From a virus, in IMG/VR virus record IMGVR_UViG_3300049186_000017, positions 1 to 41,655 of that record: DNA of 41,655 nucleotides. One strand, written 5' to 3'. Positions within the stretch are counted from its first letter, which is position 1. Each line of letters starts with the position of its first letter. Position numbers and translations under genes: made by a program. Positions 11,765 through 41,571 of this stretch are shown here, piece by piece. The notes under the pieces are model-generated. The model was not told the DNA's origin. It was given only the letters and a program-made list of their open reading frames with translations, and made no database searches.

Positions 11765-13420
11765 CTACTGTGTGACCACCTCGAAAACGCCGGATGCCGG
11801 GCGCCAATGCTGGGGCTCGCGTGCCGCAGAAATCTCTGCGCGCCGGCCGATCCGCTCGGGGGTTTCCGACACCGCGCCGGCGGTCGCATCGAGGTAATCG
11901 TCGGGCTGGTTGGCCACCGTCGGCACCCATCCGCGCATCTGATCGGGCAGCGGCCCGGCCGCCACGCTCGAGTGCATCCACAGCATCTCATTGGCCTGCA
12001 GCAGCGGCTCGATCGACTCAAGAATGCGCTTGTTCTTGTTGCCGGTCTCGGTCAGGTCCTTCACGCCGCAGGTGATGCGCCGCTGCTTCAGCGCTGCCTT
12101 GAGCGTGGCCGGCGCGAACTTGCCGATCCCGTTGGTCTCGATCGTCACGCGCGGCAGCGCGAACTGCTCGACGATGTCGCAGATCTGCGCAACCTGGCCG
12201 CCGGTGATCAGCTTGCCGTCGTCGGCGAACTCGGCCACATCGCCCGTCAGCGGCAGCACGCGGTGCAGGTAGCGGCGGCCGCTGTCATCCTGCAGGCACA
12301 CCGCGAAGGCCGAGACGTCGCTGTGCAGGTCGCCGCTGGCCGGGTCCCAGCGCGCGGCCGCGCCGACGATGCGCGCATGACCCAGCGTCATCACCGTCTC
12401 GCCGTTGGCGGTGCGCAGCCGCGGCTCGACGTCATACACCTCGATGCGGTCGGGATCGAGCCGCACCTCGTGCAGCGGCTTGGCCTCCAGCATGTACTGC
12501 GAGTCCCACGCGTTGAGCGTGCGGGTCTCTTTGCGCCGGCGCTCGATCTCCTTGCGGCTGAAGCGATCGGGCCACGCGCAGCACGCATAGATGTCGAGCA
12601 CCGCGCCGGGCGGCTTGTCGAAGATCACCGCGCAGCCCTTGCCGCGCAGCTCGAGCTCGTAGTCGACGCCCTCGACCAGCGTGCGCGCGAAGGTGTGGAT
12701 GCCGACGAGCACGTACAGCCCATCGGGCCCCGGCTGAAAGCCGATCTCGTAGCGCTTGCGCTCCTTGGTGTCATCGAAGCGCGCGGCGTGATCGAACAAG
12801 GGAATCTTCAGCACGGCCGCACCTCCGGTGATGCGCTCGGGATAGATGGAGTCGTGCGTGTGCGGCGTGCCGATGTACGTCTTCTGCGCACCGGGCACCG
12901 CGATGTGCGTCGACTCGCTGATGCGCTGGCGCAGCTTCAGCCGCGCCTCGGGCGTCTCGATGTTGCCCGGCACCTCGATGTCGTCGAAGTCCACGGCATC
13001 GGCGCGCGAGCCGGTGGCGTTCGAGGTCACGCCGACCGCGCGCATGCTGGCGTTGCGGGCGTCGCGCGCGCCGTTCACCCAGAATCGTTTGGTGCCCGGC
13101 CGCTTCGGCAGCAGGCCAACGCACCACGGGTGATTGCGCAGCACGTTGAGCACGTCCGCGGTCAGCATGCCCGCCGTCGGGCCGTCGGCCGACCACACGA
13201 GCGAGCGATGCGTGCGGTCGCGCCACAGGCGCCACGCCTTGAGCAGCGCGTACAGCGTCGATTTGGCGGCGCCGCGGAACACCATCAGCACGCGCTCTGG
13301 TTCCTTGCAGTCGACCAGCCACACGCAGATGGCCAGGTGCAACGGCGGGACCGTCCAGCCCTGGATCTCGGCCCAGCGCAGGACGAAGGCGACGAAGCTT
13401 CGGGCGTCAGCGCTTGCCAC
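11765..13420 (-). CDS. terL: terminase large subunit
   Basis: 551 aa, GTG start. ATPase-like FRGAAKST and nuclease-half features. Sits immediately downstream of a small-terminase-sized gene. Confidence 0.92.
   Translation of the reverse strand: MASADARSFVAFVLRWAEIQGWTVPPLHLAICVWLVDCKEPERVLMVFRGAAKSTLYALLKAWRLWRDRTHRSLVWSADGPTAGMLTADVLNVLRNHPWCVGLLPKRPGTKRFWVNGARDARNASMRAVGVTSNATGSRADAVDFDDIEVPGNIETPEARLKLRQRISESTHIAVPGAQKTYIGTPHTHDSIYPERITGGAAVLKIPLFDHAARFDDTKERKRYEIGFQPGPDGLYVLVGIHTFARTLVEGVDYELELRGKGCAVIFDKPPGAVLDIYACCAWPDRFSRKEIERRRKETRTLNAWDSQYMLEAKPLHEVRLDPDRIEVYDVEPRLRTANGETVMTLGHARIVGAAARWDPASGDLHSDVSAFAVCLQDDSGRRYLHRVLPLTGDVAEFADDGKLITGGQVAQICDIVEQFALPRVTIETNGIGKFAPATLKAALKQRRITCGVKDLTETGNKNKRILESIEPLLQANEMLWMHSSVAAGPLPDQMRGWVPTVANQPDDYLDATAGAVSETPERIGRRAEISAAREPQHWRPASGVFEVVTQ
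11825..11840 (-). promoter_or_regulatory. late-unit motif copy 1 (minus strand CGCAGAGATTTCTGCG), 91 nt upstream of the tailspike ATG, inside the terL 3' end
   Basis: One of three identical copies (also 25914..25929 and 35440..35454). 6-bp arms with a 4-nt centre. Confidence 0.45.
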
Positions 13421-25760: not shown

Positions 25761-25913
25761 GATCCGTTTTCCTTGGAACGAATCGCCGCGGGTTGCGGGT
25801 GTCCTTTCGGGCCGCCGATCAGCGGGGCGCTGGGCGCTTGGCGTCTCGCTGGGCTATCCCCGGTATCCGGCTGCCACACCGGGCGGGTTGCGCGCAATGT
25901 GCGGCACCCCGCC

Positions 25914-25929
25914 CGCAGAAATCTCTGCG
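25914..25929 (-). promoter_or_regulatory. late-unit motif copy 2 (CGCAGAGATTTCTGCG), 3 nt after the scaffold stop and 153 nt upstream of the capsid ATG
   Basis: Identical to the copies at 11825..11840 and 35440..35454. Followed by a GGGCGGG...CCCGCCC hairpin. Confidence 0.45.
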
Positions 25930-29028: not shown

Positions 29029-32000
29029 TACACGGTCCTCGGTTTGATCGCCCAGGTCGGGTACTCCGTCATCGGAGCGAGGCAGTCAGACCAGTTGCTG
29101 GCGCCGACCAGCCTGTTGTATGCGGTCAGTGCACCCGGCAAGCCACAGTCCACGGCATACGAAATGGCGGGCAGCATGGTTGACCAATAGCTGTACGCGA
29201 TAGGCCAATTGCCGCCGTTGAGGGCGGCATCCACGCCGGGGTTAGGCACACCTTCGCTCGCCTGATAGATCGCACCCCAACTGGAGTACCAAGGGCCGGT
29301 GCCATTCGTCCAATCGGTGCTATGCGTCGGCGCGTAAGCGATGGTGTAGCGGCCAGCATCGGCGTAGCGATACTCGGCAGAGGAAAGTCCGCCCAACCGG
29401 CCGGTGATGCTGTTGTTGATCCAATTAAGGAATCCGTCGAGGCGCGACAACCGCGTGGCGTTGAAATTGACCTTGGTCTGCTTGATGAACCCCCACGCAA
29501 AAACGTTCCAGTCGTTCTGCCAAATCGCGGCGTTCCAGATCACCGATGGGTTGAGGCCGTTGTTAGGCCAAAATTCATACTGATGCAGCAAGCCCTGCGG
29601 GTTGTTTGCCTGGGCGACGTACTTGGCGTGGTAGTAGTCGACGTTGCTGCTCAGGACGTTCAGGTACTCGGTTTGCAGCGGGTCGCCGTCCGGTGTGACG
29701 AGATAGGCGCAGGTCAGCGTTCGCAGCGCCCAGGCTGCACCTCGCGGGGTATACGAGGCCGTGTCCGTCCGCAGGATGCCCTGAGCAAAGCCGCGGATGT
29801 CGTCGCTGTTGGTGAGATAGTTGGTTGCCGCCGCGAATTGCAAGGTTTCGGCGTGATACTTGCGCCCGGTCAACAGATAGATGAGATAGCCATGCAACGG
29901 GTGATGCGCAATGTCCCAGGCGCAAACTTGCCCGCCCGTAAACGTCGGCGTGTGCTGGTTGAGCGTTGAATCGCCGACACCGGTGACGTCACCCTGCGCA
30001 TCTGCAAGCACTAGGTTCGGGTACTGCGAAATACGGATCGGCCTTCCCTGCGCCGACGAGTCTGGTTTGTTGGTGGCCGACTCACGCCGATGCAACGCAT
30101 AGCGACCGGCCACGTAGCTATGCGCGTTGATGCTGGCCCATGTGCGCGCGTCGTTGCTCGCCGTGAGGTGGAACGCATCCCACAGGGGCATCGGCCCGAT
30201 CCAGGTGGCCTCGCCGCCTCCGGTCATTTCACTCTCGATCACGTCCCCAAACCCATAAGGTGACCATGTGGTCGAAAGGCTGCCGAGCCTCGAGGCGCCT
30301 GTGCTGTTGGTGCGATACGTGGGCACCATCGCGGTCTGCTGCAAATACGCCTTGTTGTGCTCCGGTCGCACCCCAGGGTCGGTGCCGGCCCAGTGCGTCC
30401 AGGCCGTGCCGCTGCCGCTGATGAGCACCATGCGGTTAAACGCGCGCAGATTGATGGCGCCGCTGTAGCGCTGCGAGCCGTTCAGCGTGAGCGTGTACGT
30501 CGCGCTCTTGGCGGCGGGGCCGCTGACCAGGAGGTAGCCATTCTCGATCCATGGCAACACTTCAACGTTGCCCGAGGCGTACAGGCGCACCTCCAGCCAC
30601 GCCACCAGGTGCGGATCGGAGCCCACCGGCTTGCGGTAGCGCCACGACGACATGGCGTTGCCGCTGACCCAGGTTTCAAACGGCAGATCCCAGTCTGTCG
30701 TGGCCCACGATACCGAGCCGAATGTGCCGCATACGATGCTCGCGGTGATGCCGGTGGCCTTGAGGCTGGCTGTGGTGAGCGCGCTGCCGGTGGTGGCGGC
30801 GCCGTTGCGGCGAATCCTGATCGTCTTGGCGACGTTGGCCGTGAGCGTGGTGGAACCCGACACGATTGCGAAGCGCGCCGAGCCATCGGGCCATGTGTTT
30901 TTGACGTCGACCTGCAGTGCGATGTCGCCGCCGATCACCGCGCCGGAGGGCAAGTCGCCCTGCTTGAAGGGCTGGCCGATGGTGAAATCTTTGGTGCCGC
31001 TGGAGGTGGACACCAGATCGAACGACACGATGTCGGTGGTGATGTTGGCGTAGCGGAAGCACCACACGTTGTCGCTGGTGCTGCGCACGTAGGTGATGAG
31101 CTTGAGCGCCGGAAAGTGATTGAAGCGCCCCGAGAGGTTCTTGGAGCCATCGGTCAGCGGGCTGGGCGGCTTGGTGCCGGCCACGGCGTACACCGAGATC
31201 GCAAACGTAGTGGGGTGGATCTCGTAGACGTCGTTGGCCGACCACGAGAACATCAAGAAGCGATCGATGTCGGGCACGTAGACCAGCGAGCAGCCGGGCG
31301 TGGTGTTGCCGAACACGCCGGTGAAGCTGACGGTGGACTCGGCGGCGTTGTTGTTGAGGTCGTAGAGGCGGTGCAGATACGAGCCACCGCCGCCGATGCG
31401 CAGGATGCGGTTGCGCGTGGTGTCCACCGCCATGACGCACGGCACGTCGTAGACTTGCTTGCCGCCCAGGTCGGTCCAGGTGGCGTCGCTCTGGTTCCAG
31501 CGGTAGATGTTGTTCGAACCGTCATACCGTTGGACGTAGACGTTGCCGTTGGCGTCTTGGCACACCGGCATGGCGATCTGGATGCCGCCCCCTGTCGGAT
31601 TTGGAACTGGGGCATATGTGCCCGCAGGGTCCCAATCGTTCGTGGCGAAGTTGAACGCATCCACTGCAGCGGTGTGCGTGCCACCGCTCGCTTCGTACAG
31701 CGACGGCCCGCCGTGCATGAACAGTCGATTGCGCTGCGGGATGAACTGCAGGTTCCACGAGCTATGCCGCGAGCGCGGGCGGCCGTCGGCGTAGTGCGTG
31801 CTCGTGCCGGGCGTGACTCCAGGGGTCGGGTTGCGGCGACAGAGCCACGCCACGATGTTTGCGAGCAGATCGGCCGTCAGGTTCTCGTTGCCGCCGTAGT
31901 CGAGATGGCCCCCGCCCTCCAAGCCGATGCCGCGATCCCACACGTAGCCGCCAGAGAACGACGTGATGAACTGCTTCGCCCCGGCTGAGCCTGGGTTTGC

Positions 32001-32471
32001 ATAGCCCGCCTGCGCGGTCTGCGGTTGCGTGTTCGGGATCTCAAACCACGTGTTGAGCGGCACGCCGGCCAGCCATGAGGGCAAGCCATCCGCGTTGATG
32101 GTGTCAAACGCGAGCGGCGAGCCGAGATTGGAAAGCCCGCCGTTGTTCGTGATGCTGACCGACGACGTGCCGTCGGTGCTGCGGGTGACGGTGAAACTCT
32201 GCGCCGCTGATGAGCCTGCGGAGAACGTGAGCGAGCCAGGGGATACCGAGCCGGCATTTGTCGCCGCTGGTGTCACGATCACTGTGCTGGCCAGCACCCC
32301 GTTGGGCGTGACCGTGAACGTGCCAGGCAGCCCCGTGGTCCCCGAAGTCGGCCCCGACAGCGTGACGCCGTTCGCGGGCCCGGGGCCGGTGTTGATCTGC
32401 GCGTCACCCGAAACCGCGCCTGACCCGACACCGGCGAGCCGAATCGCTCGGGTCAGGTTGAAGCGGCTCAC
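29028..32471 (-). CDS. 1147-aa multidomain protein: N-terminal Ig-like segment, probable beta-propeller, C-terminal Trp/Tyr/Asn-rich helical domain (polysaccharide lyase/hydrolase-like)
   Basis: Track ORF. GTG start in a GTGA overlap. TFTVTPNG...SLTFSAGSSAAQSFTVT is Ig-like. Repeated ~50-aa blades (e.g. NGNVYVQRYDGSNNIYRWNQSDATWTDLGG). C-terminal AWDIAHHPLHGYLIYLLTGRKYHAETLQFAAATNYL. Domain calls are by eye only. Confidence 0.8.
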   Translation of the reverse strand: MSRFNLTRAIRLAGVGSGAVSGDAQINTGPGPANGVTLSGPTSGTTGLPGTFTVTPNGVLASTVIVTPAATNAGSVSPGSLTFSAGSSAAQSFTVTRSTDGTSSVSITNNGGLSNLGSPLAFDTINADGLPSWLAGVPLNTWFEIPNTQPQTAQAGYANPGSAGAKQFITSFSGGYVWDRGIGLEGGGHLDYGGNENLTADLLANIVAWLCRRNPTPGVTPGTSTHYADGRPRSRHSSWNLQFIPQRNRLFMHGGPSLYEASGGTHTAAVDAFNFATNDWDPAGTYAPVPNPTGGGIQIAMPVCQDANGNVYVQRYDGSNNIYRWNQSDATWTDLGGKQVYDVPCVMAVDTTRNRILRIGGGGSYLHRLYDLNNNAAESTVSFTGVFGNTTPGCSLVYVPDIDRFLMFSWSANDVYEIHPTTFAISVYAVAGTKPPSPLTDGSKNLSGRFNHFPALKLITYVRSTSDNVWCFRYANITTDIVSFDLVSTSSGTKDFTIGQPFKQGDLPSGAVIGGDIALQVDVKNTWPDGSARFAIVSGSTTLTANVAKTIRIRRNGAATTGSALTTASLKATGITASIVCGTFGSVSWATTDWDLPFETWVSGNAMSSWRYRKPVGSDPHLVAWLEVRLYASGNVEVLPWIENGYLLVSGPAAKSATYTLTLNGSQRYSGAINLRAFNRMVLISGSGTAWTHWAGTDPGVRPEHNKAYLQQTAMVPTYRTNSTGASRLGSLSTTWSPYGFGDVIESEMTGGGEATWIGPMPLWDAFHLTASNDARTWASINAHSYVAGRYALHRRESATNKPDSSAQGRPIRISQYPNLVLADAQGDVTGVGDSTLNQHTPTFTGGQVCAWDIAHHPLHGYLIYLLTGRKYHAETLQFAAATNYLTNSDDIRGFAQGILRTDTASYTPRGAAWALRTLTCAYLVTPDGDPLQTEYLNVLSSNVDYYHAKYVAQANNPQGLLHQYEFWPNNGLNPSVIWNAAIWQNDWNVFAWGFIKQTKVNFNATRLSRLDGFLNWINNSITGRLGGLSSAEYRYADAGRYTIAYAPTHSTDWTNGTGPWYSSWGAIYQASEGVPNPGVDAALNGGNWPIAYSYWSTMLPAISYAVDCGLPGALTAYNRLVGASNWSDCLAPMTEYPTWAIKPRTV

Positions 32472-32845
32472 TGCAACTGCTGCGAATACTGCAGGCCGCC
32501 AGGGCAGCCCACCGAGGTGGCGGTGCCGGGGATGGTGACGCTCGTGATCTGCAGGTCGCCGGAGCCGACGCCGACGGTGCCGCTGATCACGTTGACGCTG
32601 CCGGACGTGCGCAGCTCGAACTTGGCGATGTCGCCCGGCGTGACGGTGTTGTCGGCGGCGATCGAGTTGGATTGCGCGACCGCAGGGCTCGCCGTGGTGG
32701 CGCCCTGAAACGCCGTCGCAGCGAACGTCAGGCTTGCCAGCTCGGCATCAGCCGCCGTCAGCAGGCGGAACTGGCCCGAGTTCAGCAGCGCCAGGATCGC
32801 ATCGCACGCCGCTTTCTTCGCTAAGTTGGAGTAGCTCAGTGCCAT
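32468..32845 (-). CDS. hypothetical virion-module protein (125 aa)
   Basis: Distal part of track ORF 32468..32941. GGAGG lies 6 nt upstream of ATG 32845. GC3 switches to this frame at the ATG. Confidence 0.7.
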   Translation of the reverse strand: MALSYSNLAKKAACDAILALLNSGQFRLLTAADAELASLTFAATAFQGATTASPAVAQSNSIAADNTVTPGDIAKFELRTSGSVNVISGTVGVGSGDLQITSVTIPGTATSVGCPGGLQYSQQLQ

Positions 32846-32963
32846 CGATGGCCTCCGTCTGGATCGTGAATGGCGCCGTACCGACCACGTTGCCGTCGGC
32901 GTCCTTGAACTCAAGCATCCCGGTGAATTGGCCCTTGCCAAGCCCGCCTTCAGTGAGATTCAT
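32748..32963 (-). CDS. small ORF (71 aa) whose last ~98 nt overlap the next gene out of frame
   Basis: Track ORF. ATG 32963 forms an ATGA overlap with the upstream stop. Only the first ~39 codons show coding-like third positions. Confidence 0.4.
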   Translation of the reverse strand: MNLTEGGLGKGQFTGMLEFKDADGNVVGTAPFTIQTEAIDGTELLQLSEESGVRCDPGAAELGPVPPADGG

Positions 32964-33187
32964 GCCTGTACCTTGTTGATCTGCCCGAGGATGTGGTCGA
33001 GCACCTGCCGGCGCCCGAGGTTGATCAGCGTTTGCCGCTCGCCCTCTTGCCCGCCAGCCACGAACAGCTCGCCGCCGAAGCGCGCCATGAGGTCGACGAG
33101 CACGGCCTCGCCGTCGCGGTACAGCTCGAACGTCGAGCGGTACTGCTGCGGGCTGGCTGCAGCCTCGTCGGCGCGGGTGATCGTCAT
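32960..33187 (-). CDS. Bbp19-like small protein (75 aa)
   Basis: Track ORF. ATGA overlap with the portal stop. Size, position and sequence style recall the Bbp19 family of BPP-1-like phages (from memory, unverified). Confidence 0.65.
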   Translation of the reverse strand: MTITRADEAAASPQQYRSTFELYRDGEAVLVDLMARFGGELFVAGGQEGERQTLINLGRRQVLDHILGQINKVQA

Positions 33188-34779
33188 GCGACCTTCGCTG
33201 CGCGGTTCATCGCCGCCTTCGCGGCCTCTTGCTGCAGCACCATGGCCTGCTCTTGCTGCATGGCCTGCTGCTGCTGCTTCTCGCGCTTGTCACGCAACTT
33301 CGCGACCGCCTTCTCGTCGCGCAGCGCCTTGGCGGGTGCGCCGAGACCATCGGCCATCAGGCGCAGGGAGTTGTCGACGTCAATCAAGTCGGCCGCCTCG
33401 GGGAAGCCGCTCTGCACCATCGCGCCGGCGTTGGCGGCCAGGCGCTCGACGGCGGTGACTTCTTCCAGCTTCTGCGCGCGCGCCAGCGGCGACTGGTAGC
33501 GGATGGTCAGGATGCGGTCGCGCAGCGTGTCGGGCGGTGTGCCAAGCAGCCCGGCGCGGTAGGCCATGCCGAACACGCGCGTGATGGTCGGCGCCAGGTC
33601 TTCGGCCTGGAAGCGCCCGAACAGCGGGCCGAGCAGTTGGCGGATCAGCGCCACCCGCACGTGCACCTCGGTGGCCGTCATCGCAGGGCCATCCTGCGGC
33701 TGCAACTGGTCGGCCATCAGGATGCGGCGGATCTCGGCGCGGAGCTGGTCCGCCTTCGAGAACGTGACGTTGAAGTCGGCGCCGCTGGGCAGCTCCTTGA
33801 TGCTGTCGACCGAGTTGGCGACGATCACGCTGCCGCCCTTGACCTTGACGACGCGCGGGTTCAGCACGCCATCGTCCTCGGCCACGTACACGCCAGCGGC
33901 TGCGCGCGACAGCGCTTGCGATTCGAGCTGCAGCAGGGTGTTCAGCTCGTTGATCGTGGGCAGCGCCGCCGACACCGGGCCGACGGCGTAATCGCTGCCG
34001 GGCAAGGTCATCCAGCGCGGCACGATCGCGGGCATCTCGTGATAGCCCGATTCGCGCACCAGTTGCTTGGTGGCCACCTCGACGTGGCACGAGGCGATCG
34101 GCAGATTCTTGGCCAGCCGCGAGCCCTTGACGTAGTCGGCGCGCGGATAGATCGCCATGACGAACTCGAACTGATCGAGCTTGCCCTGCGCCGCCGCGTC
34201 CTTGACCTTGTCGGAGCACGCGTCGCCGTAGGCGTTCATCGCCTGCTCGGCCGAGAGCTTGAAGCGGCGAATCACCGTGTCGACCAGGCCGCCCGCCTTG
34301 CTGCAGCGGAACTTCACCTGCGCCAGCGGCCACTGCTCGAACGTGAGCGTGTCGCCCTCGGGGATGAACAGGCAGAACCAGCCGGCGGCCACGCTGTCGA
34401 GCACGGCCTCGAACTTCGCCGCGTCGTAGTTGGCCCCGTGGATCTGCTCCCACAGGAACTTGGCCACGCCGTCGAGCCAGCGCCGCTCCTCGTCGGTCTC
34501 GTCGCCCGCATCGAGCGCGAACCAGACGTCGTTGGCCGGCGTCATGCCCGACATGATCGAGCTCGTCAGCAGCCGCACCGCGTCGGCCGCGGTCGAGTCC
34601 ATCTGCTCGGCGCGCTTGTTCTGCGCGGTCTGAGCCGTCATCACGTCGTCGCCGCCGAGGCCCTGCCCGCGCTCCGGGTAGGTGGCCTCGAAGCACCGGC
34701 GCCACACGGATTCGTGCGGCTGGCGCTGCGCCTGCATCTCGCTGTCCCAGCGCAGGATGCGCGCGGCGGTGGTCTCCAT
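33184..34779 (-). CDS. portal protein (T7 gp8-like head-to-tail connector), 531 aa
   Basis: Track ORF. Conserved podovirus portal features (N-terminal RWDSEMQAQRQPHESVWRRCFEATYPERG, C-terminal Gln/Ala-rich tail). Confidence 0.92.
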   Translation of the reverse strand: METTAARILRWDSEMQAQRQPHESVWRRCFEATYPERGQGLGGDDVMTAQTAQNKRAEQMDSTAADAVRLLTSSIMSGMTPANDVWFALDAGDETDEERRWLDGVAKFLWEQIHGANYDAAKFEAVLDSVAAGWFCLFIPEGDTLTFEQWPLAQVKFRCSKAGGLVDTVIRRFKLSAEQAMNAYGDACSDKVKDAAAQGKLDQFEFVMAIYPRADYVKGSRLAKNLPIASCHVEVATKQLVRESGYHEMPAIVPRWMTLPGSDYAVGPVSAALPTINELNTLLQLESQALSRAAAGVYVAEDDGVLNPRVVKVKGGSVIVANSVDSIKELPSGADFNVTFSKADQLRAEIRRILMADQLQPQDGPAMTATEVHVRVALIRQLLGPLFGRFQAEDLAPTITRVFGMAYRAGLLGTPPDTLRDRILTIRYQSPLARAQKLEEVTAVERLAANAGAMVQSGFPEAADLIDVDNSLRLMADGLGAPAKALRDEKAVAKLRDKREKQQQQAMQQEQAMVLQQEAAKAAMNRAAKVA

Positions 34780-34782
34780 CGG

Positions 34783-35199
34783 CTACAGCGCGCTTTCGCG
34801 ACGCGGCGAACCGATCGTGGCGCGGCCTCCGCCGCCGCTCGCCAGCAGGCTGCTGGTCGGTCGAGCTGCGCCAGAGCGGGTGCTGCGACTGAGCAGCGTG
34901 CGCGCGTTGCTCAGGAACGGCGCGTCGACGCTGGTGGTTGCCTCGTCGCCGAACGTGGGCTGCGGCGCGCCGGGCGCACCTGTGGCAAGCAGCGATTTCT
35001 GCTCGCGCCGGCGCCGGTTGTCCGCCGCCACCTTCGCATTGGCCGATTGCGATGCGCGCGACTGCGCCTCCGCAGCGTCGGACTCCGAGCCGCGCAGCGC
35101 GTCTTCGGCGGCGTGGCGCGCCTTGCGTGCCGTGTCAGCAGCGGCAACACCGCCGGCCACGGCCGTGATTCCGGCGATGATCGACACGGGCTCGCACAT
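34783..35199 (-). CDS. small virion protein (138 aa) with Gly/Ala-rich hydrophobic N-terminus
   Basis: Track ORF. MCEPVSIIAGITAVAGGVAAAD resembles the N-terminus of 20476..21000. Confidence 0.68.
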   Translation of the reverse strand: MCEPVSIIAGITAVAGGVAAADTARKARHAAEDALRGSESDAAEAQSRASQSANAKVAADNRRRREQKSLLATGAPGAPQPTFGDEATTSVDAPFLSNARTLLSRSTRSGAARPTSSLLASGGGGRATIGSPRRESAL

Positions 35200-35201
35200 G
35201 G

Positions 35202-35384
35202 TCAGAACTGCCGCGGGCGATCGGGCGGGCAGACCCAGCCCTGGCGCGTCAGCACCGGCGCCGTGATCGTCTTGGGGTCGACGTCGATGTAGTTGGGCAG
35301 CCCCTCCGGCTGCGGCACTGCGGTCTCGGGAATCGGCTGCGGCTGCGCCGGCGCGGCGCCGGGAACCTTGGGGGCTTTGGACAT
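35202..35384 (-). CDS. first late-operon ORF, Pro-rich 60-aa protein
   Basis: Distal part of track ORF 35202..35585. AGGAG lies 5 nt upstream of ATG 35384. Confidence 0.55.
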   Translation of the reverse strand: MSKAPKVPGAAPAQPQPIPETAVPQPEGLPNYIDVDPKTITAPVLTRQGWVCPPDRPRQF

Positions 35385-35439
35385 CGACGCTCCTGCTGTG
35401 CGGGTCTGAAAGACCGGCGCACTATCGGAGCGATGCGGT

Positions 35440-35454
35440 GCAGAAATCTCTGCG
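35440..35454 (-). promoter_or_regulatory. late-unit motif copy 3 (CGCAGAGATTTCTGC), abutting the stop of the HTH gene and 55 nt upstream of the first late ORF
   Basis: Identical 15-mer to the copies at 11826..11840 and 25915..25929. Confidence 0.45.
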
Positions 35455-35739
35455 TCAGGCGGTGGCGCGCAGCACGCGCGACACGCTGGGGGCCACGGTG
35501 CGCGTGGGCACGTCGGTCCACTGCAGGCCCGTGCGATCGCACCACAGCGCGATGAACGCAGCGCCGGTCCAGTGCGCCGGCTCACCGATGGCGCCCTCGT
35601 GCGCCCAGTTTGGCAGCGCCATGCGGTCGATCTCGAGCGCGTCGGCGATCTGCTGCCAGGAGACGCCGAGGGTGCGGAGGTTGCAGGCCATCGCGGGCCA
35701 GTCGATGCGGGTACTGCGGGTCAGGCGCAGCGCCCTCAC
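35455..35739 (-). CDS. HTH DNA-binding protein (94 aa) at the early/late boundary; candidate late-gene regulator
   Basis: Frame of track ORF 35455..36057. GTG 35739 forms a GTGA overlap with the ruvC stop (alternative ATG 35691). LGVSWQQIADALEIDRMALPNW is HTH-like. Confidence 0.58.
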   Translation of the reverse strand: MRALRLTRSTRIDWPAMACNLRTLGVSWQQIADALEIDRMALPNWAHEGAIGEPAHWTGAAFIALWCDRTGLQWTDVPTRTVAPSVSRVLRATA

Positions 35740-36233
35740 GTCAGCTTGCCCTGCCCGTAGTGCGCCAGCAGCGTCGCGTCGGCGCGGTTGTGGTCCTTCA
35801 CGCGCTTGAACTGCGGCGCCTGCCCCGGGTACAGCCGGCAGGCGAGCTCGCGTGCCTCGCCCTTGTCCTTGCCGAGCAGCCCGTAGAAGCGCTTCCACGT
35901 CTGCGGCTGCACGACCTTGATCTCCAGCCGCGCGATGTCGGCCACCGCCTCGACGATGCCGCGCGAGCGCATCATCGAGCCCTGGCTGTGCATGCTGTTC
36001 GTCATCGCCTTGCCGCCGTTGCCGAACGCGCGCGGCCTGACGTCCTCGATCACGCACAGCGCTGCCTCGCCCGGCGGCACGAACTGGCGGATCAGCAGGA
36101 TCAACGCGCGGCCGTCGATGCGCTTGGCGCTCACGCCGCCGGTGATCGGCAGGTCGAGCACCTGGCAGCCACCGTGCGAGTCCACCGCGGCCACAGCGCC
36201 GGTCAGGCCGATGTCGATGCCGAGCGCGATCAT
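35736..36233 (-). CDS. ruvC: RuvC-like Holliday junction resolvase (165 aa)
   Basis: Distal part of track ORF 35736..36545. MIALGIDIGLTGAVAAVD...VIEDV...DHNRADATLLAHYG carries RuvC-fold catalytic acidic residues. Confidence 0.88.
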   Translation of the reverse strand: MIALGIDIGLTGAVAAVDSHGGCQVLDLPITGGVSAKRIDGRALILLIRQFVPPGEAALCVIEDVRPRAFGNGGKAMTNSMHSQGSMMRSRGIVEAVADIARLEIKVVQPQTWKRFYGLLGKDKGEARELACRLYPGQAPQFKRVKDHNRADATLLAHYGQGKLT

Positions 36234-36532
36234 CGCGAGGCCCACGCGTAGACCCCGAGCAGCGCCAGCGTGCCGACGAGCGCGATCAGCACCGCGGCCG
36301 AACGACACAGGGCCGCTCTCAGGTCCATCGCCGGCCGCGGGTCGTGCAACGGTGCATGCGCGAGCTGCAGGTCGCATTGGCTGCCGTAGCAGTCGCCGCT
36401 GCACGGGCCCTTCGACAGGTGGCACCAGATGCGGCGGTTCTGCGTGGGCGGGTCGATCCACACCGGCGCACCGTCGGCGTCGAACGAGGCGAGTTGCCCC
36501 GGCTTGCCGCCGGGTGCATGCACGTAGCTCAT
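36230..36532 (-). CDS. Cys-rich protein with C-terminal TMD (100 aa)
   Basis: Track ORF. GGAGG RBS. C-terminal AAVLIALVGTLALLGVYAW. ATGA overlap with ruvC. Confidence 0.6.
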   Translation of the reverse strand: MSYVHAPGGKPGQLASFDADGAPVWIDPPTQNRRIWCHLSKGPCSGDCYGSQCDLQLAHAPLHDPRPAMDLRAALCRSAAVLIALVGTLALLGVYAWASR

Positions 36533-36566
36533 GTGCGACCTCCAAAACGCGCGCGCGATGGGGTGG

Positions 36567-36929
36567 TCATGGGGTTGCCTCCCGCAACAGTGCGTTCACG
36601 TCATCGTCCGCGAGCCCCTTCGGCGCTTCGGCTTGAGCCTTGCGGCCACGCATCCGCTGCGCCAGCTCGGAGAACTGGTTCGGCACGTGGCGCACGTTCT
36701 TCGCGGCGTGGCGCACCCACTCGGCGGCCCGGTGTTGCCGCGGTGGCTCGCTGCCGCTGTAGCCCAACCGCAGGAACTGCTCGTAGCAGCCCGTGCACCG
36801 AGCACCGAGCCGGGTCAGCACCTCGCGCGACGTCGGCACGCTGCAGTACCGGCACGGCATCGCATCGGCCGGCACGTTGCCCATGCGCTCGGCCACCTCC
36901 TTGCGCACCTCGCTGAACGGCTTGGTCAT
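36567..36929 (-). CDS. Zn-ribbon protein (120 aa; CRYC...CTGC)
   Basis: Distal part of track ORF 36567..36968. ATGA overlap with the DUF1376 gene stop. Confidence 0.62.
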   Translation of the reverse strand: MTKPFSEVRKEVAERMGNVPADAMPCRYCSVPTSREVLTRLGARCTGCYEQFLRLGYSGSEPPRQHRAAEWVRHAAKNVRHVPNQFSELAQRMRGRKAQAEAPKGLADDDVNALLREATP

Positions 36930-37789
36930 CGCATGTCCTTCGCGGCTTTCTCCAGCCAGTTCGACCACGACTGCCGCCAGCCCTTCACGCTGCGGCGCTT
37001 GCCTGCACCACGCCCCGCGACGAAGAACTGCCGGAATTTCTCAGCCTCGCGCAGCGCCTCCTGAGCTTTGAACCCGAGCGCTAGCGCGTCGTTGCCCCAT
37101 GGCTCCGGGAGCTGGAACCCAGCCGCTAGCGCCACAACGGCTTTGCCGTTGAGCACTTCGGCGTTCAAGCCATCGAAGTCGGGTGGCGGGGTTGGCGGGT
37201 CGGCGATTCGCGCCGATCCGCTGTCTTCCTCATCCGAAGGATGAGTAATGGGTATTGGGGAGTGGGTAGTGGGGAGTGGGTACTGGGTAGCCGTGCGAGG
37301 CGTTGCAGTTTCCGTTGCAGGTTGCGTTGCAGGTGCAACGGCACCGGAACGTTGCGTGTGCGTTGCATGCAACGTTCGCAATTCGCCGATCCCGATATTC
37401 CATGGCGGGTGAACTGCAACGGCCGCAAGCTCCGCGAACAGTCGAGCACGCTCCTCGCGGTGCCGTTTCATGCGGGCGTCTTCGTTGGCGCGCTTCTGCT
37501 CGCGCTCCGGCTCGCCGTCTTTGAACTTGCTGATCTCGCGCTCGCACCGCTTGTGCGTCCAACCCGCGTCTGTCGGCGTGAAGAACTCCGAGAGCACCGA
37601 CTTGACGGCTGCGCGCTCGGTCGCCGTGATCGCCCGCGCAAGCCTGCAGCACGCCGCGAGGTCGTTCGGCAGCGGCGCCTCGCGCACGTAGTACAGGTCA
37701 ACGAGCCGGTTGTAGGCGCCCTCCTCAAGCATCGACAGGTGCACGGTGTCGCGTGCCCAGTCTCCGAAGTGGCGCTCGACGTAGTTCAT
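36926..37789 (-). CDS. DUF1376 (YdaU-like) replication initiation / organiser protein (287 aa)
   Basis: MNYVERHFGDWARDTVHLSMLEEGAYNRLVDLYYVREAPLP is the DUF1376 signature. A low-complexity Thr/Pro linker is encoded by the iteron region. ATGA overlap upstream. Confidence 0.82.
   Translation of the reverse strand: MNYVERHFGDWARDTVHLSMLEEGAYNRLVDLYYVREAPLPNDLAACCRLARAITATERAAVKSVLSEFFTPTDAGWTHKRCEREISKFKDGEPEREQKRANEDARMKRHREERARLFAELAAVAVHPPWNIGIGELRTLHATHTQRSGAVAPATQPATETATPRTATQYPLPTTHSPIPITHPSDEEDSGSARIADPPTPPPDFDGLNAEVLNGKAVVALAAGFQLPEPWGNDALALGFKAQEALREAEKFRQFFVAGRGAGKRRSVKGWRQSWSNWLEKAAKDMR
37229..37374. repeat. iteron / inverted-repeat cluster inside the DUF1376 gene: candidate origin of replication
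   Basis: CGTTGCAG x3 at exact 12-nt phasing (37301, 37313, 37325). Further CGTTGC/GCAACG copies include the palindrome CGTTGCATGCAACG (37361..37374). GGGGAGTGGGTA x2 (37257, 37271). Hairpin CTCATCCgaaGGATGAG (37229..37245). Confidence 0.55.
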
Positions 37790-38295
37790 GCCTCGACCCA
37801 CCGATACGTCTTGCCCAGTCGGATCGCCGACACGGTTTGGTGCAGGATGCCGTGCTGCTGCGCGAGCTCGACGTTGGTCGCTGACTCAGGTGCCGCCTTG
37901 ATCGCGCGCACGACCGCAACATCGGTCAGCACGATCCCTTGCGCGCGTTGGCCGGCATGTGCGGCGCGGCGCTTTTGCTCGACGCTGCGCCCCTTCAGGC
38001 GGCCACCCTGCGCCAGCGCATCCCACATCGCACGACGATCGCGCGCGAGCCGCAGGTGCACCGGGCACAGGCAATCCGTCGTGACGCAACCGCGATACGG
38101 CACACCGCGCGGCGCCTCACCAAAAGCGATGTTCCACGCCGCATTGGCGCCGGTCATCGTTCGCTTTTCGCCGCGCGCGTGATCGAACGTGTAGACGCGC
38201 GGTTGCCCGCTTGGGTCGACTGCTCCGAGCCAGTGCCAGCAGCCGGTCACGCGATCGACCTGGCAGCGCCGGCGCAGGTCTTCGACCGTCAGCAT
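37786..38295 (-). CDS. HNH_3-like protein with degenerate active site and C-terminal HTH (169 aa)
   Basis: Distal part of track ORF 37786..38766. TGCWHWLGAV...GQPRVY and RGCVTTDCLCPVHL resemble the HNH_3 scaffold, but Arg sits where the catalytic His is expected. C-terminal NVELAQQHGILHQTVSAIRLG. Confidence 0.6.
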   Translation of the reverse strand: MLTVEDLRRRCQVDRVTGCWHWLGAVDPSGQPRVYTFDHARGEKRTMTGANAAWNIAFGEAPRGVPYRGCVTTDCLCPVHLRLARDRRAMWDALAQGGRLKGRSVEQKRRAAHAGQRAQGIVLTDVAVVRAIKAAPESATNVELAQQHGILHQTVSAIRLGKTYRWVEA

Positions 38296-38462
38296 GCCGC
38301 GCGCAGTCACGAGCGCCCGCCCACGTGTTTGATCGGCATCAAATTTGCCACTACGCCGTTGCCGAACGTGGAGGCGGGGTCGGTTGGCGTAGCCTTGCCG
38401 CAATCTTTTCGCAGAGCCGGAAAAACTGACCACAGGATCTGCACAGCCTGGGGCTCCTCGGT

Positions 38463-38840
38463 TTAAGCGACGGCGCGGGGTGCGGGTCGCTCGAGTTGTT
38501 CGATGCGCTCGGCGATCTTGGCCATGCGCCTGGCTGATTCGATGTACTCGCGGCGCAGCTCGGCCGCCTCGTCTTTCGGTTCCACTGGCACCGGCTCGGC
38601 GTAGCTCAACGCCTCGGCCAAGAACTGCATGCCGGCGTGGCAGCCGCGCTCGCGCGCCAAGCGCATCACGAGCAGCAGCTGTTCCGGCGCCAGCTTCTGC
38701 GGCCGGTCGTCGTTCAGGCAGTCCAGCAGCAGCCGCTGCGCCGCGTCGACGGGCTTCTCCGGCCACAGCTTCGGGCCCACAACCTTGGAGCCGCCACAGG
38801 CCCGCACGCAGGCGATCAGCGCCTCGTTGATCGACTCCAT
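38463..38840 (-). CDS. early protein of unknown function (125 aa), second gene of the rightward-type operon
   Basis: Track ORF. GGAGGG lies 6 nt upstream of the ATG. It occupies the CII-like position, but no recognisable similarity is claimed. Confidence 0.68.
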   Translation of the reverse strand: MESINEALIACVRACGGSKVVGPKLWPEKPVDAAQRLLLDCLNDDRPQKLAPEQLLLVMRLARERGCHAGMQFLAEALSYAEPVPVEPKDEAAELRREYIESARRMAKIAERIEQLERPAPRAVA

Positions 38841-38915
38841 CAGCGGCCCTCCGACGAAGGCCGACGAATCGTTCGTGCGCGTTCGTTGACCCTGGTCACG
38901 ACACTGGCAACCATG

Positions 38916-39116
38916 TCACTCTGTCTTGGCAGTTTCGCGGGGAACGAGGTCGTCGAGGGTCAGGGCGCCGCAACTGAGAGCGACCACGGCTCGCATGTGC
39001 TCGAGCGGCACGCCGCGCACCTTCCACAACGAGATCGCAGCCTTGCCGAGCCCGAAGTGCTCAGCGACGCGGGTCACGCGGCCCTTTTCGGATTCACACC
39101 ACTCAGCGAACGTCAT
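38916..39116 (-). CDS. Cro / YdaS-like HTH regulator (66 aa)
   Basis: Track ORF. VTRVAEHFGLGKAAISLWKVRGVP is an HTH. Divergent from the CI-like gene. The ATG is only ~8 nt from the -10 box (near-leaderless). Confidence 0.78.
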   Translation of the reverse strand: MTFAEWCESEKGRVTRVAEHFGLGKAAISLWKVRGVPLEHMRAVVALSCGALTLDDLVPRETAKTE

Positions 39117-39121
39117 GCGCG

Positions 39122-39167
39122 CAGTTTAAAGCATCGTGAACGAGACGGTCAACGTGATCGTGAACCG
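39122..39167 (-). promoter_or_regulatory. early promoter/operator module P-cro: -35 TTGACC, 16-nt spacer, -10 TTTAAA, with two GTTCAC-type operator sites
   Basis: The minus strand reads CGGTTCACGATCACGTTGACCGTCTCGTTCACGATGCTTTAAACTG. It aligns without gaps to 40387..40432 (33 of 46 identical). Confidence 0.6.
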
Positions 39168-39170
39168 ACG

Positions 39171-39584
39171 ATGTTTAGGCTTGCGGGCATGCCGGATGTG
39201 TCACGGGATGAACGTCGTCGCTCGCGTTTCGCGACCCTGTTCAATGGCACCTTCAAAGGCGACTCGAAGAAGTTCCTGAAGGCCAGCGGGCTGACCAAAG
39301 GCCGCCTGAGCCAGTACAAGAAACCCGGTTTCCCTTTCGGCGAACGCGCCGCGGCCGCGCTGGCCGAGCGCTTGGGGCTGCGGCCCGACTACTTCGACAC
39401 GGACGTCACGCCGGGCCTGAGCCCGTGGGCCGCCGAGCTGGGCGCACTGATGGACGAGCGCGTTCCTGAGCCGGAGCGCGAGGCGGCGTATTTCCAGTGC
39501 GTTGCGGCGATCGAGCAGTACCTGGAGGCGCGCGCAAAGCTGCGATCCGCCAAGCCCAGGAAAGCGCCCGCTCGTAGTCCGTGA
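39171..39584 (+). CDS. CI-like HTH repressor candidate (138 aa)
   Basis: Distal part of track ORF 38637..39584. KKFLKASGLTKGRLSQYKK...FGERAAAALAERLGL is HTH-like. Divergent from the Cro-like gene. No SD before ATG 39171 (alternative ATG 39189). Confidence 0.65.
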   Translation: MFRLAGMPDVSRDERRRSRFATLFNGTFKGDSKKFLKASGLTKGRLSQYKKPGFPFGERAAAALAERLGLRPDYFDTDVTPGLSPWAAELGALMDERVPEPEREAAYFQCVAAIEQYLEARAKLRSAKPRKAPARSP

Positions 39585-39999
39585 ACACCAGGCGCCCCAC
39601 CCCGCTTTGCGACAGCGCCGCGCAATACCGGCGAAAGAACTGCTCCTGCTCGGGCAGCGTCACCAGCGCCGTCGGGTTGGCGATCGTGCGCGGTGGCCGC
39701 AAGACGGCGCCGGCGGCGCGCAGCATCACGTCGACCTCGACGGCCATCGCAGCGCCCCGGTAGTCGGCCACATGCACCAGCGATTCGGTCTCGTCGTGCC
39801 ACGCGCTGACGTCGGCGAACATCACCGGCAGCACGTCGGTCGTGACGATGCCCATCACGCGCAGCAACGACAGGCCGCCGCTGGCCTCGGCTTCAACGAT
39901 CGCCGTCCGATACGTCCATCGCTGCACGGTGCCCCCTTCGGCCCCCTCCCGCGCGAGATCAGTGTACGTTTGACCGAGGTCAATCGTCCGGGCACTCAA
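39406..39999 (-). CDS. 197-aa protein of unknown function, convergent with and overlapping the repressor gene by 179 nt (moron candidate)
   Basis: Track ORF, TTG start, no SD. Third-position GC is high for codons 1 to ~140, then collapses exactly where the plus-strand repressor gene begins to overlap. Confidence 0.5.
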   Translation of the reverse strand: MSARTIDLGQTYTDLAREGAEGGTVQRWTYRTAIVEAEASGGLSLLRVMGIVTTDVLPVMFADVSAWHDETESLVHVADYRGAAMAVEVDVMLRAAGAVLRPPRTIANPTALVTLPEQEQFFRRYCAALSQSGVGRLVFTDYERALSWAWRIAALRAPPGTARSPQRTGNTPPRAPAQERARPSVRPARRPTGSGPA

Positions 40000-40045
40000 A
40001 TGCGGGGGCAGGGTTCACACCATCCGCAATCCGACGGAGGCTGAC

Positions 40046-40330
40046 ATGCGCCGTTCCAAGTTGCCACACCTGATCGCCATGGCCGCCCTCGCCGGCTGCG
40101 CCAGTACCGGCGTCGTGCAGACCGAGCGCGACCTCTACATGATCGGCAAGAAGCACCCGGCGATGAGCTGGGGCACCTCACCCACGCTGAAGGCCGAGGC
40201 TTACGCGGAAGCGAACGAGTTCTGCGCGCGCGACGGCCGCTCGGTCGAGACGGTCAAGCTCGACGAGATCGGCGCCAGCTTCGCGCGCTCGGCCGGCGTC
40301 GAGCTGCAATTCCGCTGCGTGAAGAAGTAG
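40046..40330 (+). CDS. small lipoprotein (94 aa), moron / superinfection-exclusion candidate
   Basis: Track ORF. MRRSKLPHLIAMAALAGC lipobox. GGAGG RBS. Own terminator downstream. Confidence 0.8.
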   Translation: MRRSKLPHLIAMAALAGCASTGVVQTERDLYMIGKKHPAMSWGTSPTLKAEAYAEANEFCARDGRSVETVKLDEIGASFARSAGVELQFRCVKK

Positions 40331-40354
40331 CGACCACCCACCACTGACCCGTCA

Positions 40355-40377
40355 AGCCCGCCGCGTGCGGGCTTTTT
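40355..40377 (+). terminator. rho-independent terminator after the lipoprotein gene
   Basis: AGCCCGC-cgcgt-GCGGGCT followed by TTTT(T). Confidence 0.8.
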
Positions 40378-40386
40378 CACGCCCAT

Positions 40387-40432
40387 CGGTTTACGATTCA
40401 CTTGACTGTGCGGTTCACTGAGCTTTAAACTC
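40387..40432 (+). promoter_or_regulatory. early promoter/operator module for the plus-strand (PL-like) operon: -35 TTGACT, 16-nt spacer, -10 TTTAAA, two operator sites
   Basis: CGGTTTACGATTCACTTGACTGTGCGGTTCACTGAGCTTTAAACTC. Paralogous to 39122..39167 (minus strand). GGTTCAC occupies the same spacer position in both. Confidence 0.6.
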
Positions 40433-40458
40433 TTGTCCATCGAAACGGGAGATATGCC

Positions 40459-40836
40459 TTGAACGACAACCTGCACACCGCCGCGCTGAACGATGTTCTG
40501 CGCGACAGCGACGAGTTCGCCAACTGGCTGATGGGCGAGTGCTTCAAGCAGCCCGACGTCAGCGCCGAGGCAGCGCGCAAGCTGGCCGCTGACCTGTCGA
40601 TCGGCCGCGCGCTGAACGCCGTACCCGCCTGGCGCACTGCCGAGGTCGTGCACGTGATGCTGACCGACGACGACCCCGCGGTGGTGATGGCGGCGCGCGC
40701 GGTGCTGCGCCAGCGCTTCGCCAATGAGTTCTCGGGCCCGGTGATGCAGCGTGTCTGGGCTGCGCAGGACGCGGCCGACGAGCCGGTGCTGATGGATGAC
40801 GACGTCGGCTGCGAGTTCGACGGGGTCGTGCGGTGA
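40459..40836 (+). CDS. first early gene, acidic protein of unknown function (125 aa)
   Basis: Track ORF. TTG start 7 nt after GGGAG (40447..40451). Confidence 0.68.
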   Translation: MNDNLHTAALNDVLRDSDEFANWLMGECFKQPDVSAEAARKLAADLSIGRALNAVPAWRTAEVVHVMLTDDDPAVVMAARAVLRQRFANEFSGPVMQRVWAAQDAADEPVLMDDDVGCEFDGVVR

Positions 40837-41120
40837 GCGCGCGGCCAACACCGGGGCCGTGGGCCGTGGACTCCTTCATTGAGGCCAACGACGGCTACAA
40901 GGTGCGACGCATCCTCGCTCCGAACGGATGCACGCTGGCCGCGATCCAGCACTGCGCAGAGGATGGGCCCAACGCAACGCTGATGGCTGCGGCGCCTGAT
41001 CTGTTGGCTGCGCTGCGCGACCTGATCGCCTTCGGTGACGCTGACGACCGCCACGCCGAGCGTTGGGACGGTGTCACCGATCGCGCTCGCGCCGCCATCG
41101 CAAAGGCAGAAGGCAAATGA
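40833..41120 (+). CDS. Ead/Ea22-like protein (95 aa)
   Basis: GTG start in a GTGA overlap. PGPWAV...NATLMAAAPDLLAALRDL matches the common Ead/Ea22-type motif (GPW...ANA.L.AAAPELLEAL). Confidence 0.68.
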   Translation: MSARPTPGPWAVDSFIEANDGYKVRRILAPNGCTLAAIQHCAEDGPNATLMAAAPDLLAALRDLIAFGDADDRHAERWDGVTDRARAAIAKAEGK

Positions 41121-41317
41121 ACCGCCTGCACACCACCCCGCCCGAGCCGCTGGGCTGCCGCGAGTGGCGCGCGTTCTTCGATCCCGAGGGACCGCAAGGC
41201 ATGGGCAAGACCGAAGCCGCAGCGATCCGCGATCTCGTCATCGAGCGCGTCGAGTCGTGGACAGCGCACCCGGACGACGTGTCGCGCATCGTCGCGGCGC
41301 TGGAAGCGAAGCCATGA
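41117..41317 (+). CDS. hypothetical protein (66 aa)
   Basis: Distal part of track ORF 41063..41317. ATGA overlaps at both ends. Confidence 0.55.
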   Translation: MNRLHTTPPEPLGCREWRAFFDPEGPQGMGKTEAAAIRDLVIERVESWTAHPDDVSRIVAALEAKP

Positions 41318-41571
41318 GCGATTGGCCCTTGGGCACGCGCGCGGCGCACGCGCAGCGAATGCTCGATCACCTGGAGGTCACCACATCGGCCGAGCGTGAG
41401 CTCGCCGCGGCGGCCGCAGACCGCATGAGCGAGCGCGCCGAACTGCTGGCCATGTGCAAACAACTGCTGTTCGCGCTGGCGTCGGTGCAACTGATCGGCG
41501 GCGCCAACGACAAGCGCGCCGCGCTGTGCGACATAGCGCGCGCGTTGATCAAGCGATGCGAAGGGAGGTGA
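41314..41571 (+). CDS. hypothetical protein (85 aa), spans the circular junction
   Basis: Distal part of track ORF 41035..41571. ATGA overlap upstream. The last 43 nt are repeated at 1..43. Confidence 0.58.
   Translation: MSDWPLGTRAAHAQRMLDHLEVTTSAERELAAAAADRMSERAELLAMCKQLLFALASVQLIGGANDKRAALCDIARALIKRCEGR

Follow-up and report, generated by a model that had tools for sequence, protein, structure and literature searches.

The stretch of DNA analyzed here, hereafter the window, spans 41,655 nucleotides (IMG/VR record IMGVR_UViG_3300049186_000017) and corresponds to a complete temperate podophage (41.7 kb, 67.6% G+C) whose structural module is T7-like. Its left arm carries an integrase gene and an exoVIII/RecT pair, and the genes of its minus strand run from a cro-like gene, which lies opposite a cI-like gene on the plus strand, through a DUF1376 replication gene, a RuvC-like gene, and the gene of a 94-aa HTH protein to a late module of T7-like order: a small ORF, an internal virion protein, the portal, the scaffold, the capsid, tail tubular proteins A and B, internal virion proteins, terL, and a tailspike, past which an endolysin is encoded. 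A megablast against cultured phages with half of the window gave no match. Between 2000 and 4500, the G+C content falls to 59-62%, against about 67% elsewhere, and no ORF of at least 50 aa in the interval 2105-4775 reaches the GC3 cut-off of 0.80 that marks the other genes of the phage; this low-G+C stretch may be cargo recently acquired beside the integrase.

The late module is otherwise T7-like, save that ORFs of 1147, 227, 200, and 313 aa lie between the portal and the scaffold (26785-32471, minus strand). Relatives carry other cargo at this place, such as a 64-aa ORF and a 313-aa ORF in locus L124, the latter with an N-terminus that resembles, by eye, a signal peptide, and the portal-scaffold interval appears to be a variable cargo slot within the late operon. 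The 1147-aa ORF (29028-32471, minus strand) has no PHROG or Pfam match, and the remaining large ORFs of the window fall into structural PHROG families. No large ORF matches an RNA polymerase family, be it in PHROGs (all large ORFs) or in Pfam (the 1147-aa ORF and nine others), and since no RNA polymerase is found in the window, the phage must use the polymerase of its host. Promoters of the T7 or N4 polymerase type were likewise discarded as candidates, no phage single-subunit RNA polymerase having been found.

A previous reading of this sequence had pointed to a hairpin motif of 15-16 nt that would occur three times on the minus strand, at the head of late transcription units. An exact search of the whole window with CGCAGAGATTTCTGC retrieves the same three copies, at 35440-35454, 25915-25929, and 11826-11840, on the minus strand only, and none elsewhere; when up to two mismatches are tolerated, dinucleotide-preserving shuffles yield 0.12 matches on average, and none of them reaches the observed count. 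In its 16-mer form, the motif reads CGCAGAGATTTCTGCG in copies 2 and 3, copy 1 ends in A, and the best further match on the minus strand carries three mismatches. Each of the three copies heads a late gene block (table 1). The distances originally proposed hold for copy 1, which abuts the stop of the HTH gene 55 nt before the first late ORF, and for copy 3, which is located within terL, near its 3' end, and precedes the tailspike gene by 91 nt; copy 2 does lie 153 nt before the capsid gene, but it follows the scaffold stop by 2 nt rather than by 3 nt. In the same way, the -10-like hexamers first put forward (TAGTGC, CATTGC, and CATTGG, for copies 1 to 3) are present past the copies, but the hexamers that are conserved in relatives are situated 1-2 nt further upstream (GATAGT, CACATT, and CAGCAT).

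Table 1. Features of the putative late regulatory system in the window
Feature	Position	Strand	Remarks
Candidate late activator, 94 aa, Xre-like HTH	35455..35739	minus	phrog_16553; last gene of the early rightward operon
Late promoter 1 (predicted), dyad CGCAGA-GATT-TCTGCA	35439..35454	minus	adjoins TGA of the 94-aa HTH gene; 55 nt before ATG at 35384
Late promoter 1 (predicted), -10-like hexamer GATAGT	35421..35426	minus	12 nt past dyad; inferred start about 30 nt before ATG 35384
Late promoter 2 (predicted), dyad CGCAGA-GATT-TCTGCG	25914..25929	minus	2 nt after scaffold stop; 153 nt before capsid ATG at 25760
Late promoter 2 (predicted), -10-like hexamer CACATT	25896..25901	minus	12 nt past dyad
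Conserved structured leader, capsid mRNA 5' UTR	25761..25895	minus	two helices; promoter 2 would transcribe it
Late promoter 3 (predicted), dyad CGCAGA-GATT-TCTGCG	11825..11840	minus	within terL 3' end, 58 nt before terL stop; 91 nt before tailspike ATG at 11733
Late promoter 3 (predicted), -10-like hexamer CAGCAT	11807..11812	minus	12 nt past dyad; overlaps conserved terL codons His-Trp

Relatives of the phage were collected by protein searches with its capsid, portal, and terL, which provided 12, 40, and 37 loci, respectively. A locus search of IMG/VR with the single 94-aa sequence gave no matches, and an exact 15-mer scan of IMG/VR, which returned more than 115 contigs with one match each, only reflected the chance background and was set aside as uninformative. 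The portal loci include prophages of Roseateles, many Enterobacterales, Pseudomonas, Stenotrophomonas, Lysobacter, Burkholderia, Cupriavidus, and others, and the nearest cultured phages are Yersinia phages YeP4-6, Alcaligenes phage Piluca, Acinetobacter phage TPWB-05, and Escherichia coli phage vB_EcoM_APEC. In these relatives, a conserved order is observed, in which an HTH homologue is followed by the motif, a small ORF, and the portal, and, further on, the scaffold by the motif and the capsid. In over 80 loci of related prophages and phages, the motif takes the general form of a 16-bp dyad, N6-(G/T)A(A/T)N-N6', located at the start of the late operon, in the gap between scaffold and capsid, and in the 3' end of terL (last ~75 nt), so that the pattern is recovered in related genomes with all three of its positions conserved, as the original prediction would have it. 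More specifically, a dyad of the form N6-GAWN-N6' is found both after the HTH gene and before the capsid in Roseateles, Enterobacterales, Pseudomonas, Stenotrophomonas, Burkholderia, Cupriavidus, and the cultured Yersinia phage YeP5. The first-site dyads overlap or closely follow the end of the HTH gene, and the capsid-gap dyad is kept in most IMG/VR and prophage relatives whose sequence includes the scaffold-capsid gap. The terL dyad (for instance, AGTCGG-GAAT-CCGAAC, GGGCGG-GATT-CCGCCC, or GATGCG-GAAC-CGCATC) is kept although the amino acids that it encodes vary by lineage.

The arms of the dyad vary by lineage (CGCAGA, TGGCGG, GGTCGG, GGTCAG, AGTCAA), and in several genomes the arms of one copy are identical to those of the other. 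Most commonly, the dyad reads GGTCGG-GAAA/GATT/GAAT-CCGACC, when the Roseateles prophages have TGGCGG-GATT-CCGCCA and the window CGCAGA-GATT-TCTGCG; judging from this comparison, the motif of the window is a lineage-specific version of a widespread element. In the two loci whose HTH genes are closest to that of the window (L170 and L172, 62-64% identity), the central G is replaced by T and the arms pair poorly: CGTAGA-TATT-TCAGCA (L170, 1402-1417) and AGTAAA-TATT-TTTCCC (L172, about 519-534) are found in the same register as the window dyad. These degenerate dyads could stem from decay, from faulty assembly of short read-derived contigs, or from another mode of recognition.

The set of sites also differs from one phage to another. 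In YeP5, three sites are found before the late operon, the capsid gene, and the lysis cassette, the third one not preceding a tail fibre gene. Some of the loci L182-L190 show a fourth matrix-positive site (AGTCGG-GAAC-CCGAAG, 12 nt, GACCAT), about 1.3 kb past the terL stop and beyond the next gene after terL, which means that phages differ in their number of late units. No detectable first site was found, despite an HTH homologue, in three Symbiopectobacterium copies and in phage Piluca. Several copies of this prophage type coexist in one symbiont genome of Symbiopectobacterium (L139, L141, L142, L144, and L167), and the three copies in question keep the capsid promoter with no matrix-detectable first promoter. 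Two loci from Accumulibacter MAGs (L135 and L166) are prophage remnants that have kept the first late promoter and the portal, their early region, including the HTH gene, being replaced by a type I restriction hsdR-like gene; in L166, the small ORF past the promoter has grown into a GGAGRI-type tandem repeat. Since tabulating the HTH gene against the first site is blurred by truncated remnants and by lineage-specific arms that the matrix misses (those of the window included), the tabulation was used for vB_EcoM_APEC only, which has neither the HTH gene nor the motif.

What ties the dyad to a promoter is first of all its spacing from the downstream hexamer. Among 93 unique CGGGANNCCG sites in the late sense, 60 have nAnnnT at exactly 12 nt, when the other spacings (9-15) account for 2-7 sites each, and none of the 31 antisense sites has it at 12 nt; this test is unbiased, as the hexamer was not imposed on the CGGGANNCCG sites. 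Every well-matched dyad has an nAnnnT hexamer exactly 12 nt past it, such as GACATT, CACAAT, or GATACT in relatives. A weight matrix covering -44 to -5 gave 77 sense matches against 0 antisense matches in 0.99 Mb and, on the terL loci that stand outside its training set, 22 sense matches against 0 antisense matches in 0.39 Mb. In a collection of 58 sites for which A at -11 and T at -7 were required, 78% have A at -9 and a single one of the 58 has T at -12; that the conservation of A -11 and T -7 is itself real follows from the unbiased spacing test and not from these preselected sites. The two bases are the hallmark of sigma-70-family -10 elements. At copy 3, the A and the T of the hexamer sit within conserved terL codons (GAT/CAT TGG), and the conservation of this particular hexamer is for that reason not independent evidence.

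By contrast with this recognizable -10, the -35 position is occupied by AGATTT in the window and GGGAWW in relatives, with at most two of six matches to TTGACA. The early promoter-like sites of the same phage differ from the late sites in this respect: two canonical sigma-70-like sites are found in the window, at 39123-39152 (minus strand, 18-bp spacing) and 40402-40431 (plus strand, same spacing), with the shared hexamers TTGACC or TTGACT and TAAACT, and one of these sites closely precedes the cro-like gene. Both are probably early promoters, unlike the late ones, which are devoid of a -35 hexamer. The starts inferred from the late hexamers would give plausible leaders, of about 30 nt with an AGGAG (copy 1), about 130 nt (capsid), and about 65 nt (copy 3).

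Other sigma factors were also considered. The consensus sequences of sigma-54, sigma-28, sigma-32, and ECF factors, compared by eye with the matrix, were ruled out, the downstream hexamer being sigma-70-like. It is true that the commonest center of the dyad, GGGAAAC, resembles ECF -35 motifs, that the structural module is T7-like, and that the 1147-aa ORF has no family match, from which one might imagine a promoter for a host alternative (ECF-type) sigma reading a GGAAC-like center, or for a phage-encoded polymerase. This seems to us very improbable: the hexamer past the dyad shows A -11 with T -7 rather than a CGT-type ECF -10, the center is GATT or TATT in the lineage of the window phage, the arms follow the phage and not the host, the motif is retained in relatives that lack the 1147-aa ORF, and a Pfam RNA polymerase domain is found in no scanned large ORF, the other large ORFs belonging to structural PHROG families.

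The genomic context of the capsid copy is informative too. Directly upstream of this copy, many loci from enterobacteria, Burkholderia, Cupriavidus, and Xanthomonadales show a hairpin followed by a T-run, a succession that is, as far as its sequence can be read, that of a terminator-promoter junction. This bears on the proposal that the dyad would work as an RNA hairpin (CGCAGA-GAUU-UCUGCG) in read-through transcripts, whether as a boxB/put-like signal for antitermination, as a site of RNase processing, or as a stabilizer of 3' ends, because an intrinsic terminator upstream of the element would leave, in many relatives, little read-through RNA containing it. An RNA hairpin would make sense of the complementarity of the arms, maintained across lineages via changes on both sides, of the fixed orientation of the element and the invariant GA with which its loop starts, of the location of two copies directly past stop codons, of a stability high for its size (-7.3 kcal/mol, z = -4.4, for the isolated hairpin), and perhaps of a 7:2 ratio of G.U (G.T) to A.C among inner-pair mismatches, counted among related sequences; dyad symmetry and compensatory changes are equally expected of an RNA or a DNA hairpin. 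It would, however, leave the rigid 12-nt gap to nAnnnT without any role. Neither is there a terminator for it to act upon after the copies of the window: a terminator scan of 25000-41655 gives none at copies 1 and 2, and no U tract or T run follows any of the three copies, which accordingly do not qualify as intrinsic terminators. Besides, no N-like or Q-like protein was found (PHROG, Pfam), no relevant Rfam match was obtained at gathering or permissive thresholds, and the arms, which in several genomes are identical from copy to copy, vary together with a DNA-binding helix (see below), which points to a sequence-specific recognition of the arms and not to pairing alone. On the whole, a role as an RNA element appears very unlikely, and its boxB/put-like form, which had been offered as the alternative to a promoter, is not supported in view of the upstream terminators, the fixed -10 spacing, and the lack of an N-like protein.

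The protein encoded just upstream of copy 1 had been singled out from the start as the candidate activator. Its family, phrog_16553, bears the label "transcriptional repressor", an uncurated transfer; no Pfam or NCBIfam family matches the protein, and its database homologues are all named hypothetical, when a full profile search (E <= 1e-10) collects at least 662 clusters at 50% identity. In an AlphaFold2 model (pLDDT 92.5), it starts with a short strand at the N-terminus, continues with a three-helix HTH and a long helix, and ends in a C-terminal strand and helix, a fold for which Foldseek only returns weak, generic matches to Xre, cI, and controller proteins (E >= 0.04, TM about 0.45). Among relatives whose sequence includes the upstream flank, most have the HTH gene right before the first promoter, and the two motif-bearing loci without it are truncated remnants beside a type I restriction gene.

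Along with this synteny, it is the co-variation between recognition helix and dyad arms that favors this candidate. Helices of the type ...K-S-T-L-x-G-W-K go with the arms GTCGG or GACGG, GRKTITDY and PRRTVNDW with GGCGG, SKAQVINY with GGTCAG, and DRMALPNW (the helix of the window) and TRGALPNW with CGCAGA and CGTAGA. Over 29 non-identical proteins, the distance between helices correlates with that between arms (Mantel r=0.47, p<2e-4), bearing in mind that shared ancestry can inflate Mantel tests, when the correlation is weak for the rest of the protein (r=0.12); in partial Mantel tests, the helix retains its correlation given the rest (r=0.46, p<2e-4) and the rest loses it given the helix (r=-0.10). 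From this co-variation, which constitutes its main, statistical basis, we infer that the 94-aa protein reads the arms of the dyad.

Reading the arms could also serve to repress. A site centered at about -32.5 overlaps the place where sigma region 4 binds, and a repressor would fit there too; the 94-aa protein would then delay or limit late transcription from an operator laid over the -35 region, in keeping with its PHROG label and with a fold that resembles Xre/cI repressors and the controller proteins of restriction-modification systems, which can repress. We deem this unlikely, as the factor-free promoters are poor (no -35, hardly any T at -12, and matches limited to A -11, A -9, and T -7), which leaves little to repress, and as the PHROG label is an uncurated transfer. 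The gene, moreover, is the last one of the early lytic operon, right before the late genes, and in lambdoid layouts, the region between early and late genes is where late activators or antiterminators sit. It is nonetheless from the weakness of the promoters, and only from it, that we infer activation rather than repression.

We thus regard as probable that the three copies are the upstream halves of late promoters for the host sigma-70 polymerase, which would be silent alone and activated by the 94-aa HTH protein; this protein, encoded just before copy 1, is most likely what switches on the three promoters. The idea of activator-dependent late promoters, already contained in the original prediction, is in this sense backed by the positional conservation of the element, its rigid 12-bp spacing, its strand specificity, the upstream terminators, the synteny of the HTH gene, and the helix-arm co-variation. 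In such a scheme, transcription would start 6-7 nt past the hexamer, placing the dyad at about -40 to -25 with its center near -32.5, at the usual place of the -35, and in the absence of a -35 hexamer, the promoter should therefore be silent on its own. After prophage induction, the 94-aa protein would be made from the last gene of the early operon and would bind, probably as a dimer, the two arms (-40 to -35 and -30 to -25), thereby recruiting or stabilizing the sigma-70 polymerase, which could then use the weak -10. A first unit would express the small ORF, the internal virion protein, and the genes from the portal onwards, a second one the genes from the capsid onwards, via a structured leader, and a third one the tailspike and the lysis genes.

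The centers of the arms being about 10 bp apart, the dimer would lie on one face of the helix, and the major groove at the center of the dyad would face away from it. Speculatively, sigma region 4 may contact the invariant and asymmetric (G/T)A of this center from the other side of the helix, in the manner of lambda cII-dependent promoters, or this (G/T)A could be a residual contact of sigma region 4, aligned with the GA of TTGACA at an 18-bp spacer; such a residual contact would, still speculatively, explain the fixed orientation of the dyad. More broadly, the large family phrog_16553, made of Xre-like proteins of ~80-100 aa, might switch on the late genes in a pan-proteobacterial clade of temperate phages whose virion genes are T7-like, acting from a dyad that lies exactly on the -35, 12 bp from the -10, and either replacing the DNA contact of sigma region 4 or sharing the -35 DNA from the opposite face, a generalization that we put forward as tentative and rather doubtful. 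To our knowledge, such a geometry of activation, with the dyad on the -35, is undescribed for palindrome-binding dimers. If it were true, the specificity for the arms would be reprogrammable via the recognition helix.

With regard to known systems, the elements of the window display what characterizes activator-dependent sigma-70 late promoters, namely a -10 with A -11 and T -7, a poor -35, and a repeated site at a fixed position heading late units. Among these, the closest functional analogue of the putative late promoters is, by comparison of their architectures, the C system of phage Mu. The late promoters of Mu (Plys, PI, PP, and Pmom) show a recognizable -10 and no typical -35, and a 16-bp imperfect dyad overlapping the -35 is bound by C, an HTH activator of the Mor/C family that is small and encoded by the phage, with the host sigma-70 polymerase (PMC2582627; bioRxiv 10.1101/2025.05.02.651988). 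The Mu dyad is centered at -43.5 (PMC2582627), and cryo-EM is available for this system (bioRxiv 10.1101/2025.05.02.651988). In both phages, several late promoters would thus combine a -10 and a 16-bp dyad over the -35 position without any -35 hexamer, but the dyad of the window, at about -32.5, always stands 12 bp from the -10 and is nearer than that of Mu by about one helical turn. The proteins differ as well: that of the window has an Xre-like domain with extra N- and C-terminal elements, no sequence match to the Mor/C family was seen among the Pfam matches of 18 members, and no Mor or C structure was found among the 50 best Foldseek PDB matches.

The controller (C) proteins of restriction-modification systems are small Xre-type HTH dimers (~80 aa) whose palindromic operators adjoin or cover the -35 and which activate via sigma-70. 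Three of them, C.BclI, C.AhdI, and C.EcoT38IS, are among the better structural matches to the model of the 94-aa protein, albeit weak ones (E 0.15-0.4, TM about 0.44), and the resemblance is one of size and fold class only, since the C-box sequence is unrelated to the dyad of the window and controller proteins operate in a restriction-modification operon and not on phage late genes. In lambda, the cII sites of PRE, PI, and PaQ serve lysogeny and consist of direct repeats to which a tetramer binds, with cII and the polymerase occupying opposite faces of the helix. Like a cII site, which reads TTGCN6TTGC (PMC2629481), the window element is made of two blocks of 4-6 bp, about 10 bp apart from center to center, that flank the -35 of a weak promoter. 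With arms at -40 to -35 and -30 to -25, the geometry is nearly that of cII sites; the repeats of the window are, however, inverted and associated with late genes, when those of cII are direct and associated with lysogeny, and no sequence similarity of the 94-aa protein to cII was seen. Antitermination systems such as N/boxB, HK022 put, and Q/qut likewise involve a short hairpin element that recurs in lytic units, and a small regulator gene is found at the lambdoid "Q position". In N/boxB and put, however, the RNA element is upstream of the terminators that are overridden (N-type systems depend on an N-like protein as well), whereas in the relatives of the window phage the terminators are upstream of the element, and unlike in all three systems a -10 hexamer accompanies the window element at a constant spacing; as to Q/qut, the 94-aa protein has no Q family match in Pfam, and no terminator-like site follows the three copies. 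No description of the consensus motif or of the function of the protein family was found in the searchable literature, including that on the nearest cultured phages. The element would on this basis be a new variant within the activator-dependent phage late promoters.

The capsid unit has a further particularity, as its leader of ~130 nt, with homologues in L116-L165, is conserved across Beta- and Gammaproteobacterial prophages. In 24 relatives, compensatory changes are observed at 11 of its 15 predicted pairs, and it comprises two similar modules, each made of a hairpin and then GGA(U/C)A(C)CC. It has no match among Rfam families, and a translational control or processing element is possible.

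From a broader perspective, these observations would provide a testable regulatory logic for a widespread and almost unstudied group of prophages, which includes the inducible Yersinia phages YeP4-6 as well as prophages of Klebsiella, Salmonella, Serratia, Enterobacter, Burkholderia, and Stenotrophomonas, along with a candidate function for a protein family annotated only as "hypothetical" or "repressor". For such genomes, they also suggest a rule for the annotation of late promoters (a dyad, 12 bp, and nAnnnT), and the series of helix and arm specificities could yield orthogonal and compact activator-promoter pairs. The unusual position of the dyad raises the question of how sigma region 4 is accommodated at these promoters and, with a switch of this kind, T7-like virion modules would be expressible without a phage polymerase.
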